Shown in pieces: positions 7,531 through 62,366 of a DNA stretch of 64,000 nucleotides; position 1 is the stretch's first letter; every line of letters begins with the position of its first letter. This DNA is from Ruminococcus sp. (GTDB lineage: Bacteria; Bacillota; Clostridia; Oscillospirales; Ruminococcaceae), in the NCBI GenBank assembly GCA_020861185.1, contig JAJBSV010000007.1, positions 52,093-116,092 on the forward strand, in the 5' to 3' direction. A program made the translations under genes and the position numbers. The notes beneath the pieces were generated by a model, which was not told the origin of the DNA, searched no databases, and saw nothing but the letters and a program-made list of their open reading frames with translations.

Positions 7531-7571
7531 AACATTCCGTTCCTTTCTTCAAAATGTAGTGCAAGGCACTC

Positions 7572-7627
7572 AAAGCCTCCCCTGAAAGGGGAGGGGGACC
7601 GCCGGCGAAGTCGGTGGTGGAGGGGTT
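7572..7627 (-). repeat. REP2 double-hairpin element (sub-type a, inverted)
   Basis: AAAGCCTCCCCTGAAAGGGGAGGGGGACCGCCGGCGAAGTCGGTGGTGGAGGGGTT. It overlaps the stop codon of the DUF4340 gene. Confidence 0.8.
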
Positions 7628-21992: not shown

Positions 21993-22022
21993 TTGACAAA
22001 TATCAGGAACATATGATATAAT
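21993..22022 (+). promoter_or_regulatory. sense promoter of cassette 1
   Basis: TTGACA (21993) - 18 nt - TGaTATAAT (extended -10; TATAAT at 22017). Confidence 0.65.
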
Positions 22023-22081
22023 ATCAGTAGCAAGCGAGTTGAAGCGGTTTGACCTTCGATAAAACTGAGGAGGTGGCTGCT

Positions 22082-22186
22082 ATGACGATTTTCGAAGTTA
22101 TTACGACGGTTTTATCTATCGTTAATCTGATGGCGGACATAGTACTTGGCATTCTTGGTCTTCGGACTGGGAATAAAAAGAAATAA
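22082..22186 (+). CDS. 34-aa hydrophobic Lys-tailed peptide (type I toxin-like; possibly holin-like-toxin family)
   Basis: MTIFEVITTVLSIVNLMADIVLGILGLRTGNKKK. SD GAGGAGGTGG lies 6 nt upstream. Not in the ORF track because it is too short. Confidence 0.65.
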   Translation: MTIFEVITTVLSIVNLMADIVLGILGLRTGNKKK

Positions 22187-22294
22187 CCGCCCGGCTTAAC
22201 TCATAAAGGGACGGTCGATTTCCAAACATAGTGCTACCGTGAGTAGCACATTTTAGGTCGAGCCGCACTGAGTGACGTTCAGTCCAACTCTCTT
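22170..22294 (-). ncRNA. predicted antisense RNA of cassette 1 (ends approximate)
   Basis: Starts about 7 nt after the minus-strand TATAAT. A possible stop is at the U-rich tract UUAUUUCUUUUUAUU, antisense to the KKK-stop codons. Confidence 0.35.
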
Positions 22295-22300
22295 GCTATT

Positions 22301-22329
22301 ATTATACCCTATCGCTGCCCGATTGTCAA
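22301..22329 (-). promoter_or_regulatory. antisense promoter of cassette 1
   Basis: Minus strand: TTGACA (22329..22324) - 17 nt - TATAAT (22306..22301). Confidence 0.65.
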
Positions 22330-22337
22330 CAGCTTTT

Positions 22338-23237
22338 TTATTTTCCGAGGAGCTCTTCAAACTCTTCCTTCGTGCAGAACGTCGTCCCTTCATGCGAGAT
22401 TGCTCCCGCCGCTGTGGTGACGGCGTACTTGAGGACGTCTTCGAGAGGCAAGTTCTTGGTCAGGGCAAGGATTGCCCCGGCAAGCATGTTGTCGCCCGCT
22501 CCCGAGGTGCTCTTGACAGGCACCTTCATAGCCGGAGCCTTGTGGCACTCGGCTTCGGAGACGATAATCGCCCCTTCTGCACCTCTTGAGACCAAGACAA
22601 CCTGCACGCCGTAATCCGAAATTATCTTTCTCGCCGCCGAGATTATCTCACTTTCGGTGGAAATCTTCCCGACGAGCGTTTCAAGTTCAAAAATGTTCGG
22701 CTTTATCATGAAGGGATGCGCCTTCAAGCCTTCTCTCAGGAGTTCGCCTTGTGCGTCCAGAATCACTTTTGCATTCGAGAGTTCACCAAGTTCACGATAA
22801 ATATCACTTCCGACGCCCTTCGGGACGCTCCCCGCAAGGACGATAAACTCGCTGTCCCCCGAGGATTCGGCAACCGAAGCCTTCAGCGCCTCGATGCTCT
22901 TTTGTGTAACTTCGGGGTTCGACTCGTTGATTTCAGCAGTCCTGCCGAGCTCGGTCTCCATAATCTTAAGATTCGTTCTGAGCGAACCCGGGCACTGGGT
23001 AAACTTGCACTCGGTACCCTCACTCCCGAGGGTTTCGGGGATAGCTTCCCCGCCGTCGAAATTGAAGCCGAGAGCACGGCTCGGGACTCCCAATCTCGAA
23101 AGAGCTCTGCTCACATTGATTCCCTTGCCGCCGATGTCGAGGCTCACAGGCTCGACCCGGTTCATGGCATCGAGGTCGAGCTTCCCGGTCTTGACCGTCT
23201 TGTCAAGACACGGGCTGAGAGTTACCGTAGTAATCAT
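22338..23237 (-). CDS. PfkB-family sugar kinase (1-phosphofructokinase / tagatose-6-P kinase type)
   Basis: DIGGKGINVSRAL and a C-terminal GAGDNMLAG motif. Confidence 0.8.
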   Translation of the reverse strand: MITTVTLSPCLDKTVKTGKLDLDAMNRVEPVSLDIGGKGINVSRALSRLGVPSRALGFNFDGGEAIPETLGSEGTECKFTQCPGSLRTNLKIMETELGRTAEINESNPEVTQKSIEALKASVAESSGDSEFIVLAGSVPKGVGSDIYRELGELSNAKVILDAQGELLREGLKAHPFMIKPNIFELETLVGKISTESEIISAARKIISDYGVQVVLVSRGAEGAIIVSEAECHKAPAMKVPVKSTSGAGDNMLAGAILALTKNLPLEDVLKYAVTTAAGAISHEGTTFCTKEEFEELLGK

Positions 23238-24647: not shown

Positions 24648-24676
24648 TGTTGACATCAAGCGAAGCGTATGATATA
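24648..24676 (+). promoter_or_regulatory. sense promoter of cassette 2
   Basis: TTGACA (24648) - 17 nt - TGaTATAAT (TATAAT at 24671). Confidence 0.7.
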
Positions 24677-24738
24677 ATAACCTCGGTAAGAGAGCGAAAA
24701 ACGGCTTGACCTTTGATAAAACTAAGGAGGTGGTCGTT

Positions 24739-24831
24739 ATGACGATTTTAGAAGTGCTCGCACTACTTAATCTGATTACGAACATAGTACTTGGCATTCT
24801 CGGCTTAACCTCCGGGAATAAAAAGAAATAG
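24739..24831 (+). CDS. 30-aa hydrophobic Lys-tailed peptide (type I toxin-like)
   Basis: MTILEVLALLNLITNIVLGILGLTSGNKKK, with SD AAGGAGGTGG upstream. Confidence 0.65.
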   Translation: MTILEVLALLNLITNIVLGILGLTSGNKKK

Positions 24832-24935
24832 CCGAGAGCTAGAGTAAAAGTCCCGACCAATTCCGATTTTAGTGCATCCCTCACAGGAGCACATATTAGT
24901 TGAGCCGGAGCTGTTACCGGCAGCTCCGCTCTCTT
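24815..24935 (-). ncRNA. predicted antisense RNA of cassette 2 (ends approximate)
   Basis: The 5' AGAGAGC can close onto GCUCUCGG just before UAUUUCUUUUUAUU. Two internal hairpins: GGAGCUG/CAGCUCC and GUGC/GCAC. Confidence 0.35.
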
Positions 24936-24941
24936 ACTGTT

Positions 24942-24970
24942 ATTATACCCCATCGCTGTTGCTTTGTCAA
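24942..24970 (-). promoter_or_regulatory. antisense promoter of cassette 2
   Basis: Minus strand: TTGACA (24970..24965) - 17 nt - TATAAT (24947..24942). Confidence 0.7.
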
Positions 24971-25001
24971 CAGCTTTTTTATTGGGTTTAAAAGGTATTT
25001 T

Positions 25002-27490: not shown

Positions 27491-27895
27491 TTACATCAAT
27501 TCCAAAAATTCACCTACACCGATAATTCTCGGGTCGGTTATATTCGATTCCAAAAAATCCTTGTCTCCCGTTAAAAACAAATCCGCATGGGCATCAAGTG
27601 CCGCTCTGAGAATCGGGCGGTCTTTAGGGTCGCGGATTTCTTTTTCAACATCGGTTTCTTCCTCCGGTGTCTTGACAAGACGGATATATGAAAGCGCATT
27701 GTACAAAAACGCTTCCATCTCGGTTATGCGCTCGGGGAACTTTTCTCTGAATTTTCTATGCAATTCATCCACAACATAATCACAGACAATCGGCTGAAAC
27801 GGCGGGTTTACCGCTTTATAGAAAGCGGAAGCAACCTTGCCGTTCGGGAAAAGAGCCGCAGAAATGATTATGTTAGTATCGAGCATAACTCTCAT
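27491..27895 (-). CDS. PIN-domain toxin (type II TA, VapC-like)
   Basis: MLDTNIIISA N-terminus and conserved acidic residues (LTGDKDF). Overlaps the upstream antitoxin gene by 4 nt. Confidence 0.75.
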   Translation of the reverse strand: MRVMLDTNIIISAALFPNGKVASAFYKAVNPPFQPIVCDYVVDELHRKFREKFPERITEMEAFLYNALSYIRLVKTPEEETDVEKEIRDPKDRPILRAALDAHADLFLTGDKDFLESNITDPRIIGVGEFLELM

Positions 27896-28188: not shown

Positions 28189-28244
28189 GTAGGAAAGTAG
28201 GAATTTCCTACTTTTATTATATCCTATCTTCGGCTTATTGTCAA
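28189..28244 (-). promoter_or_regulatory. promoter and palindromic operator of the AbrB-PIN operon
   Basis: Minus strand: TTGACA (28244..28239) - 17 nt - TATAAT (28221..28216). The perfect palindrome GTAGGAAtTTCCTAC (28197..28211) sits at the predicted start site, next to an AGTAGGAA direct repeat. Confidence 0.6.
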
Positions 28245-28306
28245 TCGTTTTCTATTCCGAGAGTTTGCTTCGCAAACTCTCTAAGTTCGACGCAGTCGAA
28301 CTTGTC

Positions 28307-30784: not shown

Positions 30785-30874
30785 GTTAAGCTCCCGACAA
30801 AATCGCATTAAATCAAAAATCCGCTATCTTATATGATAGCAGATTTTGTGTGAAAAGTAAAGTATGAGTTTCCC

Positions 30875-30904
30875 TTGACACACTGGGGAAACATATGATA
30901 TAAT
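30875..30904 (+). promoter_or_regulatory. sense promoter of cassette 3
   Basis: TTGACA (30875) - 18 nt - TGaTATAAT (TATAAT at 30899). Confidence 0.6.
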
Positions 30905-30967
30905 GCTCGTAGCAAATGCGGGGACACGCGGGCGCACTCCAGTCTGAAAGGAAGGGAGTGATAGCAT

Positions 30968-31090
30968 ATGAGTATTACGGAAGTTCTTTTGCTTCTTGAC
31001 ATACTTCTGTCGGCTGTTTCCCACAGATGCGTAGCATCTATGTTATCAACTCGGTTCCCACCGAAAGAAATAACCGCATCTTGTAGTTAG
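30968..31090 (+). CDS. 40-aa divergent small ORF of cassette 3 (possibly a frame-shifted toxin remnant)
   Basis: MSITEVLLLLDILLSAVSHRCVASMLSTRFPPKEITASCS. The family-type C-terminus (..LGSHRKK-stop) is present only in the +1 frame. Confidence 0.4.
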   Translation: MSITEVLLLLDILLSAVSHRCVASMLSTRFPPKEITASCS

Positions 31091-31181
31091 CAAAGATAGC
31101 GGCTCTTCTCACATACTTAGTTATCACGGAGACGCTTGTTTATCTGAACTGACACTTCGGATGAAACTGTCCCCGTTTGCT
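31055..31181 (-). ncRNA. predicted antisense RNA of cassette 3 (ends approximate)
   Basis: Lies downstream of the minus-strand consensus promoter. Extent inferred by analogy with copies 1, 2 and 4. Confidence 0.25.
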
Positions 31182-31187
31182 ACCAAT

Positions 31188-31216
31188 ATTATAACTCCTC
31201 GCTGTTGATTTGTCAA
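31188..31216 (-). promoter_or_regulatory. antisense promoter of cassette 3
   Basis: Minus strand: TTGACA (31216..31211) - 17 nt - TATAAT (31193..31188). Confidence 0.65.
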
Positions 31217-31224
31217 CAGCTTTT

Positions 31225-32475
31225 TTATTTGACGCTGAACGTCTCCGATACATCAGACAGCACAATATCATCATCTGTGCAAACAATCGTGAATCCGTCG
31301 TAATAGACCGAATAGATTCCGTCTGCGGCGAGGGCTTCAAGCTTTGATTCGTCGAGGGTGTCGGCGATATAGGTGTCTGTCAGCCCGAGCAGCAGGTCGG
31401 CGCAGGTCGCTGAATCGGAATAGAGCACCAGGTCCTCGGTTGCGGCTTTGCAGAGACCGTCGGTGGGATCGATATAGGGGTTTCTCGTTTCGCCGTCCTC
31501 ATAGGTATAGTAGCGCAAAGCGTCGTCCGAGGTGATTGCATAGTCATGTGCGTAAACAAAGCTCATCGCACCTTCATAAATCATATCGGCGACCGAATAA
31601 ACGGTGTCGCCCTCCCTCGAATAGAGAGTATAGGAAAACAGCTCGTCGCAACCGCCAAGGTTTCTGGTGAAGCCGTCGGCAGAGCCGATTATTCCGGCGG
31701 TATAGCCGTTTTCAATCATCACATCCGAAATATAGTCGACAACAAACGCGTTCGTCATCCACGAAAAGTCGATGAAGCTGTCGATTCCCATCTCTTCGGC
31801 ATACTTAAGATACTCGTCCGAAACGTTCAATATAACCGTGTTGTCCTCAAGAAACTCCAAAGCTACATGCTCGTCCGTGCCGACGAACCCGAGAACCTCG
31901 GCGAAATACTCCGCCTCGACGTCGTTATAAAGCGGGTCGAATTCCTTCGCCTGCCAGTCTTCATCCGAGAAGAAAAGGCTCTCGTATTCCGAATAAATCG
32001 GTCCGAGATAAATCTCACGTCCGCCACTCTCAACCATCGTCTCAAGTGCCGAATAGAGCACCTCGTCGACCACTATTTCCTCATTCGGGTGGTTGTTTAT
32101 ATACCAGACGTTAAAGACATATTCATATTCCGTGTCGGGCGTGAAGAGCTGATAAGCCGTTTCGCAGGCATCCGAATAGATGACGACTATCGCCTTGCGC
32201 TCGGTAGTCGCAGATTCACTTCCAGCGCCGATGTCGTACATAAACGTGAGCTCCGTCGCGACGCTCAGGTCGTCGACGTCCGCCTCTATCTCCTGCCAGC
32301 CGTCCGTGCCGGAAAAAAGCTCGTTGATGGCATAGCCAAACGCCGTTGCCGCAATCAGCACCAGGAGTACAACCGCGACAATCCGAAGACCGATATGCGA
32401 GGTCGAAATCTCGACGTTCTCGACCGGCTTAGGGCTCAAGTTACTTGTATGAATTCGTGACCTTGTAGATTTCAT
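31225..32475 (-). CDS. hypothetical membrane-anchored protein (416 aa)
   Basis: N-terminal TM segment (LRIVAVVLLVLIAATAF) and an acidic ectodomain. I recognise no family. Confidence 0.5.
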   Translation of the reverse strand: MKSTRSRIHTSNLSPKPVENVEISTSHIGLRIVAVVLLVLIAATAFGYAINELFSGTDGWQEIEADVDDLSVATELTFMYDIGAGSESATTERKAIVVIYSDACETAYQLFTPDTEYEYVFNVWYINNHPNEEIVVDEVLYSALETMVESGGREIYLGPIYSEYESLFFSDEDWQAKEFDPLYNDVEAEYFAEVLGFVGTDEHVALEFLEDNTVILNVSDEYLKYAEEMGIDSFIDFSWMTNAFVVDYISDVMIENGYTAGIIGSADGFTRNLGGCDELFSYTLYSREGDTVYSVADMIYEGAMSFVYAHDYAITSDDALRYYTYEDGETRNPYIDPTDGLCKAATEDLVLYSDSATCADLLLGLTDTYIADTLDESKLEALAADGIYSVYYDGFTIVCTDDDIVLSDVSETFSVK

Positions 32476-40951: not shown

Positions 40952-41189
40952 TAGACCTCGCAAATTTAGGCGATAATGCAAAAAACGTCGCCGATTTTTC
41001 ACGGCATTTTGGACAATTTGAAGGTTGCAAAATCCGAAAAGTAAGCGAAACTGGAAGCCTTTGTAAAGGAAACATAAAATCCGCCATGACGGTTCGTGTA
41101 CGAAAAAATTCATATTCGGCAATTTTTCGGGCGGAAGGGTGAGGATTTTGCAAGTTTGAGATTTCAATAATTCATGGCAGGGGAATAAA

Positions 41190-41260
41190 TGTAGGGGCGG
41201 ATATCATCCGCCCGTTTGTTGGTTGACTGCTGGTTCGGGCGGATAATATCCGCCCCTACA
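41190..41260. repeat. REP1 palindromic element, copy B
   Basis: TGTAGGGGCGGATATCATCCGCCCG - 21 nt - CGGGCGGATAATATCCGCCCCTACA. Confidence 0.85.
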
Positions 41261-45984: not shown

Positions 45985-46014
45985 TTGACAACGTGTTCGA
46001 ACATATGCTATAAT
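45985..46014 (+). promoter_or_regulatory. sense promoter of cassette 4
   Basis: TTGACA (45985) - 18 nt - TGcTATAAT (TATAAT at 46009). Confidence 0.65.
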
Positions 46015-46071
46015 GCTTGTAGCAAGAGAGCACGGCTTGACCTTTTACATTTGTAAAGGGAGGTGGCTTGT

Positions 46072-46164
46072 ATGACATTTGCAGAAGTTATTCTTTTGTT
46101 GAATTTCATCTCGTCCATCGTCTTTGGAATTCTCGGTTTAACGACCGGGAACAAAAAGAAATAG
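46072..46164 (+). CDS. 30-aa hydrophobic Lys-tailed peptide (type I toxin-like)
   Basis: MTFAEVILLLNFISSIVFGILGLTTGNKKK, with SD AGGGAGGTGG upstream. Confidence 0.65.
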   Translation: MTFAEVILLLNFISSIVFGILGLTTGNKKK

Positions 46165-46270
46165 CCGAGAGCTAAAGTAACAAAGTCCCCGACCAATTCC
46201 ACTTTTAGTGCAGCCTTGAGTTGCACATTTAAGGTTGAGTCGAGGCTGTTCGCAGCAACCCCGCTCTCTT
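46150..46270 (-). ncRNA. predicted antisense RNA of cassette 4 (ends approximate)
   Basis: Lies downstream of the minus-strand consensus promoter. It is complementary to the sense 3' UTR and the stop-codon region. Confidence 0.35.
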
Positions 46271-46276
46271 GCTTTT

Positions 46277-46305
46277 ATTATAACCCATCAAGGCTATTTT
46301 GTCAA
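46277..46305 (-). promoter_or_regulatory. antisense promoter of cassette 4
   Basis: Minus strand: TTGACA (46305..46300) - 17 nt - TATAAT (46282..46277). Confidence 0.7.
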
Positions 46306-46333
46306 TAGCCTTTTTTATTTGCTCAATAGGGGC

Positions 46334-56466: not shown

Positions 56467-56521
56467 AACCCCTCCACCGGCTTCGCCGGTCCCCCTCCCC
56501 TTTCAGGGGAGGCTTTTTTTT
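56467..56521 (+). repeat. REP2 element (sub-type a), acts as the galM terminator
   Basis: AAACCCCTCCACCGGCTTCGCCGGTCCCCCTCCCCTTTCAGGGGAGGC followed by T8. Confidence 0.8.
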
Positions 56522-56549
56522 GCTCTCGCAAAAGTTTGTGCAGAATACA

Positions 56550-56601
56550 AAAAGGCTCCCCTGAAAGGGGAGCTGGCGCCCGAAGGGCGACTGAGGGGTT
56601 T
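56550..56601 (+). repeat. REP2 element (sub-type b), inverted partner of 56467..56521
   Basis: AAAAGGCTCCCCTGAAAGGGGAGCTGGCGCCCGAAGGGCGACTGAGGGGTTT. Confidence 0.8.
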
Positions 56602-60895: not shown

Positions 60896-60952
60896 AAACC
60901 CCTCCACCACCGCCTTCGGCGGCGGTCCCCCTCCCCTTTCAGGGGAGGCTTT
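60896..60952 (+). repeat. REP2 element (sub-type a) between argG and argH
   Basis: AAACCCCTCCACCACCGCCTTCGGCGGCGGTCCCCCTCCCCTTTCAGGGGAGGCTTT. It abuts the argH RBS. Confidence 0.8.
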
Positions 60953-60990
60953 GACTACCTACTACAAAAAGTTGTGATAGAAGGAAAATA

Positions 60991-61036
60991 GGCTCCCCTG
61001 AAAGGGGAGCTGTCAGCGAAGCTGACTGAGGGGTTT
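60991..61036 (+). repeat. REP2 element (sub-type b), inverted partner; overlaps the argG stop
   Basis: GGCTCCCCTGAAAGGGGAGCTGTCAGCGAAGCTGACTGAGGGGTTT. Confidence 0.8.
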
Positions 61037-62270: not shown

Positions 62271-62293
62271 GTTGATTTCCTCCAATGATTTAT

Positions 62294-62366
62294 TGTAGGG
62301 GCGGATATCATCCGCCCGTTATTTCGTCGCGATGGCAGGTTCGGGCGGATAATATCCGCCCCTACA
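62294..62366. repeat. REP1 palindromic element, copy C
   Basis: TGTAGGGGCGGATATCATCCGCCCG - 23 nt - CGGGCGGATAATATCCGCCCCTACA. Confidence 0.85.

Follow-up and report, generated by a model that had tools for sequence, protein, structure and literature searches.

The window analysed here is a 64,000-nucleotide (nt) stretch of a Ruminococcus sp. genome (assembly GCA_020861185.1, contig JAJBSV010000007.1). It contains four copies of a short cassette, at 21993-22342, 24650-24983, 30875-31229 and 45985-46318. The third of these, copy 3 (30875-31230), is complete and belongs to a family of which this genome has 22 copies; all features that the original prediction had described for it were found in place. 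It has an extended -10 promoter, a sequestered Shine-Dalgarno sequence (SD), a peptide open reading frame (ORF), a 3' untranslated region (UTR), a terminator and a convergent antisense promoter. Copy 3 is likely to be a complete type I toxin-antitoxin-like cassette in which the toxin has been knocked out by a lineage-specific 16-nt insertion. Type I function is suggested for the family by analogy, and the word toxin is used below in that sense. The features of the cassette, with peptide lengths in amino acids (aa) and folds of minimum free energy (MFE), are:

30875..30904, plus strand: toxin-mRNA promoter; -35 box TTGACA at 30875-30880, 18-nt spacer, TATAAT at 30899-30904
30896-30904, plus strand: TG-extended -10 of the toxin promoter, TGATATAAT; the promoter matches consensus at 12/12 positions
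near 30911, plus strand: predicted start of the toxin mRNA
30911..30926, plus strand: 5' arm of the 5'-3' helix, AGCAAATGCGGGGACA, from MFE folds; duplex -26.9 kcal/mol
30935-30940 with 30954-30960, plus strand: hairpin of anti-SD CACTCC with SD GGGAGTG, which sequesters the SD in MFE folds
30968..31090, plus strand: frameshifted peptide ORF of 40 aa, MSITEVLLLLDILLSAVSHRCVASMLSTRFPPKEITASCS; codons 1-18 are family-like, codons 19-40 a new tail
31022..31037, plus strand: 16-nt insertion, CACAGATGCGTAGCAT, after codon 18, from alignments
31038..31073, plus strand: remnant of the ancestral reading frame (+1), LCYQLGSHRKK-stop, from comparison with intact relatives
31062..31183, minus strand: predicted antisense (antitoxin-like) RNA of ~120 nt, starting ~7 nt past its -10 box and covering the 3' UTR only
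31074-31102, minus strand: predicted terminator hairpin of the antisense RNA; its U tract is the complement of the toxin KK-stop codons, 31061-31073
31168..31181, plus strand: 3' arm of the 5'-3' helix, TGTCCCCGTTTGCT, to which the antisense RNA 5' end is complementary as well
31188..31216, minus strand: antisense-RNA promoter; TTGACA 31216 to 31211, 17-nt spacer, TATAAT 31193 to 31188
31201..31230, plus strand: intrinsic terminator of the toxin mRNA, GCTGTTGA-TTTG-TCAACAGC (hairpin 31201-31220), then a T run

Promoters were scored as sigma-70-type over 12 consensus positions. The antisense promoter also matches at all 12, and its -35 box lies inside the toxin terminator stem. The other cassette copies share the toxin-promoter layout of copy 3. 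A consensus scan finds five promoter-like sites in the copy 3 region, against 1.2 +/- 1.0 in shuffled sequences. The hairpin at 31074-31102 is seen in the fold and is absent from the listing of a simple terminator scan. In silico, copy 3 thus has two marks of a type I system: a putative antisense RNA gene that overlaps the toxin mRNA, and an SD that is predicted by the folds to be sequestered. The earlier statement that copy 3 retains both promoters (12/12), the SD (30954-30960) and the N-terminal part (codons 1-18) is correct. With all signals intact, transcription of both RNAs probably continues.

The nearest cassettes number eight: one is a paralog within this genome (C16:87163-87483), and the other seven come from five further genomes of the genus. 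None of these eight, from six genomes, carries the insertion. In the alignment of nine cassettes, copy 3 alone has the 16 extra bases, along with two private point changes located 4 nt either side. Six relatives were translated by script and encode 29 aa, MSITEVLLLLDILL[ST]A[VI]SLGY[EK]IG..RKK; G045_C23 and G021_C12b were read as insertion-free by eye in the same alignment. Species-representative genomes were also searched with a tolerant pattern that allows 6-36 bases at the site. It gave seven matches in five metagenome-assembled genomes (MAGs), all of insertion-free length. The single insertion shifts the frame, which gives copy 3 its 40-aa ORF. The original prediction had the ORF run to 40 aa, as it does, and depart from the family at about codon 16; compared with its own subfamily, it departs after codon 18. 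The family-like ending LGSHRKK-stop was likewise correctly read in the +1 frame (31038-31073). The view of copy 3 as an indel-inactivated toxin is supported by a definite lesion, one insertion absent from 8/8 nearest cassettes and 7/7 pattern matches. The insertion is probably lineage-restricted and recent.

No donor of the insertion was found: the genome holds no other copy within 3 mismatches of the 16-mer or 4 of a 22-mer, and by eye the insertion is not the reverse complement of adjacent sequence. Seven nucleotides (CGTAGCA) are shared with the 5' end of the mRNA, an identity estimated to be within chance. In folds, the 16 nt form a small local hairpin of their own with the next bases, and the other helices stay in place.

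The genome is assembled in 16 contigs and the family is repetitive, which might favour an artefact of assembly or sequencing as the source of the 16 bases. This explanation is hardly credible. The bases are unique in the genome (within 3 mismatches) and untypical of error, and the 16 nt are also present in a 205-nt contig of the public sequencing run X1, which spans the site and aligns to 30885-31090 (4 mismatches, one 1-nt gap). A sequencing error, named beforehand as something that could restore the family-type ORF, fails as a refutation on this contig. Another X1 contig joins 30780-30880 to a CotH gene start unlike that of the window. This suggests that X1 holds a different strain with the cassette at the same site; the contigs are short and the link between them is unproven. 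Run X5 has a 14.7-kb contig with an insertion-free version at another locus, and the contigs of runs X2 and X3 over the insertion site are mostly clipped paralog contigs. Strict and tolerant pattern scans of metagenome contigs gave no stretches with a copy-3-type ORF, with or without the insertion.

In the shifted product, 22 unrelated residues would take the place of the basic HRKK tail and of the last part of the hydrophobic helix. It resembles a small hydrophobic peptide with a basic end in codons 1-18 only. Over the last eight residues, copy 3 has a net charge of 0; the intact paralog has +1, and copies 1, 2 and 4 of the window have +3 to +4. Since the helix end and the basic tail are lost, the product is most likely non-toxic.

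The 40-aa peptide could alternatively be a functional new product, either neo-functionalised, as the original prediction allowed, or still membrane-active. Its SD and start codon are intact and are followed by an ORF that stays open over 40 codons, the 18-aa hydrophobic start is retained, and frameshifted type I toxins can stay toxic according to published work (PMC7192591). Nevertheless, no second instance of the 40-aa form was found. All eight relatives have the 29-aa form, the seven pattern matches lack the insertion, and the 40-aa ORF has no relative among the proteins of 22-70 aa in a large protein collection. It is therefore not a conserved variant, and the objection that it might be one falls away. 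The basic C-terminal tail is also lost, and C-terminal Lys-Arg residues are reported as indispensable for the toxicity of AapA1 (PMC10537873). A functional new peptide is thus very unlikely.

Several points weigh against copy 3 as a type I-like cassette with a dead toxin. The transcripts, their ends and the antisense RNA are predictions, the sequencing runs listed as carrying the stretch including none of RNA, and the toxicity of the family is presumed from analogy. The family peptides match no curated toxin family in Pfam, NCBIfam or Rfam. The hydrophobic first 18 residues are still there in the 40-aa product, which reaches a hydropathy of 1.71 in its best 19-aa stretch; the intact paralog reaches 1.98. 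Run X1 is possibly related to the source sample, though its contigs differ from the window. A frameshifted ibsC has been reported as still toxic (PMC7192591); because of this, and because the hydrophobic start is retained, the loss of toxicity is uncertain.

The predicted toxin mRNA (about 30911-31227) was folded at MFE. The fold has a helix that closes the 5' end onto the 3' region, the SD hairpin, a post-stop hairpin (31074-31102), a further 3' UTR hairpin and the terminator. The SD hairpin is found in the folds of copy 3, of relatives in G045 and G001 and of the paralog in the same genome. The closing helix recurs in the G045 relative and the paralog; the G001 relative closes differently. 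The helix is specific to each copy. Cognate arms have a mean of -24.3 kcal/mol, against -17.4 for 380 non-cognate arm pairs. There are 6-13 contiguous base pairs in 20/20 copies, with 18 distinct helix sequences, for example AGCAAGAGAG/CTCTCTTGCT, GACATGAGGAG/CTCCTCATGTC and GGTGAGAGG/CCTCTCACC. Twenty of the 22 copies entered this analysis; C13:5509 and C16:95279 were left out, as the promoter pattern missed their toxin promoter. The alignment of the 20 transcripts is too poor at the 3' end for a column-wise count of pairs, and duplexes and helices were counted arm by arm instead. The covariation of the 5'-3' helix, claimed earlier, is real, and the changes are compensatory. The full-length mRNA is predicted to be closed by a long-distance helix of the hok/Sok or aapA/IsoA type.

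In intact members of the family, a strong promoter would give an mRNA of ~300 nt with its 5' end paired to the 3' UTR and its SD buried in a hairpin. The peptide encoded by this mRNA, of ~29-34 aa, would have a hydrophobic helix of the membrane type and end in a basic tail. Transcription from a convergent promoter within the mRNA terminator would give an antisense RNA of ~120 nt. This RNA would have full complementarity to the 3' UTR, with the 3' arm of the helix included. If bsrG/SR4 is a guide, the duplex of the two RNAs would lead to decay by RNase III and keep translation off (PMC3834814). The 5'-3' helix and the buried SD would keep the mRNA inert, as described for aapA1 (PMC5416894). The antisense RNA of copy 3 could have two partners: its own mRNA and, with imperfect pairing, that of the intact C16 paralog. 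The calculated duplex with the paralog 3' UTR (73% identical) has -142 kcal/mol and perfect runs of 19 and 17 nt. The corresponding values are -225 kcal/mol with its own mRNA and -52 to -56 kcal/mol with other subfamilies.

A profile was built from the four window copies and used in an nhmmer search of the genome (Oscillospiraceae; 1.97 Mb, 16 contigs). The search found 22 full or nearly full cassettes (E <= 3.2e-07); eleven rows with E >= 0.065 were left out as short promoter-like pieces. In 20 of the 22 copies an SD is followed by an ORF of 29-34 aa, hydrophobic in its body and basic at its KK/KKK-type end. The two deviant copies are copy 3 and one on contig C4. The cassettes are scattered between housekeeping genes. 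Genes beside the four window copies are chromosomal and on the minus strand, and encode RimP, a PfkB-family kinase, an Na/H exchanger, a CLC channel, CotH, GH25 and MreB; each of the four toxin ORFs runs antisense to the adjoining genes.

Within the genus, a pattern built on the GGAGGTG SD finds 85 cassettes (84 + 1), spread over 12 of 40 genomes; the remaining 28 have no match. The reversed control pattern finds no cassettes in the same survey. Reading frames were called from SD-to-stop lengths and printed prefixes, in a survey that requires intact SD, start and stop motifs and is thus biased towards intact copies; 79 of the 85 cassettes are in frame, and the other six belong to one lineage, that of the C4 copy. 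Because 79/85 are in frame, ORFs appear normally to be preserved in the family, and copy 3 would therefore be an exception. The carriers found in the species-representative pattern search are MAGs of uncultured Oscillospiraceae.

A profile of 17 intact peptides matches 51 representative proteins (E <= 0.001) among 1.84 billion. Deviant forms among these homologues (P0013, P0022, P0024, P0029, P0035 and P0050) include ones with long read-through tails past the KK end (KNNRP...) and one of 40 aa that resembles two fused N-termini. Since several of the 51 homologues carry such tails, frame and stop variants occur in other genomes too.

The four window peptides give nothing above cut-off in Pfam, and no match to Hol_Tox (PF16935) at E<=10. 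For NCBIfam type I toxin families (Fst, Ldr, Hok and others) there is nothing above cut-off, and nothing at all for copy 3; the sole NCBIfam match is that of copy 2 to NF010232, at 15.9 bits against a cut-off of 85. The gathering score of Hol_Tox, the TxpA/BsrG-like family, is 23.3 bits; one of the 51 homologues reaches 13.2 bits, and the best cassette match in a six-frame PF16935 search of the genome has 11.2 bits (E=1). The family peptides may resemble bsrG-type peptides in their N-terminus and KKK tail. Rfam at gathering score finds 2 tRNAs only in the window, and in E-value mode gives chance-level matches only over 30800-31300 (E>=0.51). With 22 copies in 2 Mb, a presence in 12/40 genomes of the genus and no match in Pfam, NCBIfam or Rfam, this is an uncurated family.

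The orthologous site was compared in related genomes, as had been proposed. In the closest one (G021), with flanks 87-89% identical, the whole cassette is missing from it (C14:26000-26657, L002). The segment concerned is:

30795..31242: 448-nt segment that holds the cassette; absent, with 6 nt instead, at the G021 orthologous site and in X5 and X2 contigs

The empty joint runs from 30794 to 31243. G021 has the 416-aa gene directly next to the CotH gene, the stop codon of one and the start codon of the other being one base apart. In the window, the two genes are separated by the cassette segment, from which the 416-aa gene takes its last codons. On the minus strand, 30861-30826 has weak promoter-like sites that would serve the CotH gene.

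Cassettes differ between genomes at a second site, the rimP-pfkB locus. A copy-3-type cassette is found there in G045, G001 and G044 (L014, L003 and L015), and copy 1, of another subfamily, in the window. The flanks are 86-96% identical. Homology to the window breaks at about 22033 and 22293, inside the promoter-proximal arms (copy 1: 22034-22292), and cassette interiors therefore seem, from these alignments, to have been swapped between loci by recombination between conserved ends.

Presence and absence at orthologous sites, the exchange of interiors at one locus and the lack of a curated family match could belong to something other than a toxin-antitoxin system. One candidate is a gene for a small membrane peptide under an antisense regulator; another is a dispersed mobile element that carries promoters and whose inverted ends merely resemble an RNA helix. 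The cassette ends are indeed inverted repeats, made up of the promoter boxes and the first ~15 transcribed bases, and the promoter search matched either strand. However, the promoter spacers differ between the two ends while boxes and transcribed arms are kept, a pattern more in keeping with promoters and RNA pairing than with ends bound by a transposase. At the empty site, no sign of a target-site duplication was seen. A hydrophobic helix, a KKK tail, a buried SD and a 3' antisense RNA also make up the textbook type I layout. A non-toxin-antitoxin family is thus distinctly unlikely. A mobile element with terminal inverted repeats was considered as a candidate in its own right and was rated unlikely.

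The second deviant copy, C4:24879-25239 (L038, L045), belongs to an older frame-broken lineage. It has a 22-nt insert with a 7-bp inverted repeat, and a 1-nt insertion 8 nt downstream. Its subfamily has 19 cassettes, and 6 of them, each from a different species, share the insert (further loci: L046, L048, L049, L050 and L052); the flanks are homologous (syntenic) in at least four of the six species. Between the two most distant versions of the insert 5/24 bases differ, and by our own count four of these changes alter a residue of the new frame, so that the new peptide is not conserved. In the six cassettes, 5/75 columns vary across promoter boxes, SD, helix arms and U tract, against 41/79 for spacers plus insert (Fisher's test, p = 4e-10, overstated as the sequences are kin). 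The terminator is also kept. Two processes could account for this conservation: selection acting on the expression signals, or recurrent gene conversion with intact paralogs as donors.

This lineage bears on the earlier claim that the RNA elements of copy 3 are under constraint. Constraint is plausible by analogy with the C4 type. It cannot be demonstrated in copy 3 itself, since the insertion is confined to one lineage; its intact promoters and helices alone are no proof, as they may have had no time to decay. Copy 3 by itself does not distinguish retention for an RNA role from a young pseudogene.

Selection might nonetheless have kept copy 3 as an RNA-only module, with its antisense RNA, or its mRNA acting as a sponge, regulating the paralog or guarding against same-subfamily cassettes. 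The persistence of the C4 type in six species, the low variation of its signals and the extensive pairing predicted between the copy 3 antisense RNA and the paralog 3' UTR speak for this. On the other hand, an insertion in one lineage with intact signals can be explained without selection, and gene conversion between paralogs, evident from mosaic cassettes, could keep signals alike. In S. aureus sprG/sprF, moreover, non-cognate antitoxins are reported to have failed to neutralise toxins (PMC6393307). We regard such retention as possible but doubtful. A broader proposal is more tentative still, and we think it unlikely: short ORF insertions would turn cassettes into long-kept RNA-only genes, of which copy 3 is a young and the C4 type an old example, and the antisense RNA or decoy mRNA of copy 3 would tune the C16 paralog or immunise against same-subfamily cassettes.

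Taken alone, copy 3 as a cassette with a knocked-out toxin is ordinary gene decay in a multi-copy type I-like family. Together, a young broken copy 3 and an old C4 type in one genome make a natural experiment on whether antisense RNA genes outlive their toxins and cross-regulate paralogs. Cross-regulation between paralogs is still called open in the S. aureus work (PMC6393307).

Other elements of the window are:

27494-27895, minus strand: PIN-domain gene (PF13470, E = 7.8e-15)
28203-28257: region upstream of a small ORF that precedes the PIN gene; grouped by a repeat finder with the cassette antisense-promoter ends (65% identity)
1158-1236, 41183-41260, 62287-62366; also 7551-7596, 56471-56575, 60907-61012: short GC-rich palindromic repeats

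The PIN gene and the small ORF probably form a type II toxin-antitoxin pair that has a similar promoter but no relation to the cassettes. The palindromic repeats are intergenic and form two families, GGGCGGATA[AT][CT]ATCCGCCC and CTCCCCTGAAAGGGGAG. They look like repetitive extragenic palindromic (REP)-type or terminator-type elements.

Among known systems, hok/Sok and aapA1/IsoA1 resemble the cassette in the fold of the mRNA. In hok/Sok, the toxin mRNA is kept inert by 5'-3' long-distance pairing; the same is described for aapA1/IsoA1 (PMC5416894). As in these systems, the full-length mRNA here would be closed by a 5'-3' helix, with a sequestered SD and a peptide of ~30 aa. Their antisense RNA covers the 5' portion of the mRNA and takes effect once the 3' end has been trimmed. 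The predicted RNA of copy 3 covers 31062-31183, that is the 3' UTR including the 3' arm of the helix, and no complementarity to the mRNA 5' region or translation start was found for it. Hosts of hok/Sok and aapA1/IsoA1 are Proteobacteria and Campylobacterota, whereas the host here belongs to the Clostridia.

The bsrG/SR4 pair of Bacillus subtilis is a type I system with a 3'-overlapping antisense RNA; SR4 acts through decay and translational silencing (PMC3834814). The cassette is like bsrG/SR4 (and txpA/RatA and bsrE/SR5) in its predicted toxin mRNA of ~300 nt and its small hydrophobic peptide (38 aa in bsrG). It also has, as predicted, a convergent antisense RNA on the mRNA 3' end and an SD in a double-stranded region (PMC3834814). 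It differs in lacking a Hol_Tox match (11-13 bits, against 23.3), in the length of the predicted antisense RNA (~120 nt, against ~180 nt) and, for copy 3, in the broken toxin frame. The 5'-3' closing helix is a further difference, as it is not known to be a bsrG feature.

Three Clostridioides difficile modules, CD2517.1-RCd8, CD2907.1-RCd9 and CD0956.2-RCd10, are also clostridial and have convergent, overlapping toxin and antitoxin genes (PMC6563280). Their peptides likewise have a hydrophobic N-terminus and a lysine-rich C-terminus, and are described as unannotated and without homology to older families (PMC6563280). Compared by description only, they differ in lying in prophages and next to clustered regularly interspaced short palindromic repeat (CRISPR) arrays, with peptides of 30-56 aa (PMC6563280); the cassettes here are 22 scattered copies. 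A search for literature on type I systems in uncultured gut Oscillospiraceae found none; the sole co-mention is a review of C. difficile riboswitches.

Inactive toxin genes are familiar from other paralogous loci. The chromosomal hok genes of E. coli K-12 have been inactivated by insertions. In S. aureus sprG/sprF, SprG4 is reported as not expressed (PMC6393307). As in both of these, some toxin genes of the family are probably inactive, the locus persists and the same question of cross-talk arises. The break in copy 3, unlike theirs, is a 16-nt insertion in the ORF and not an insertion sequence (IS) element or the loss of a promoter, and the copy number is far higher. On present sequence evidence, the layout of the cassette is that of the 3'-overlapping type I systems of Firmicutes, with a hok/aapA-like closing helix added.

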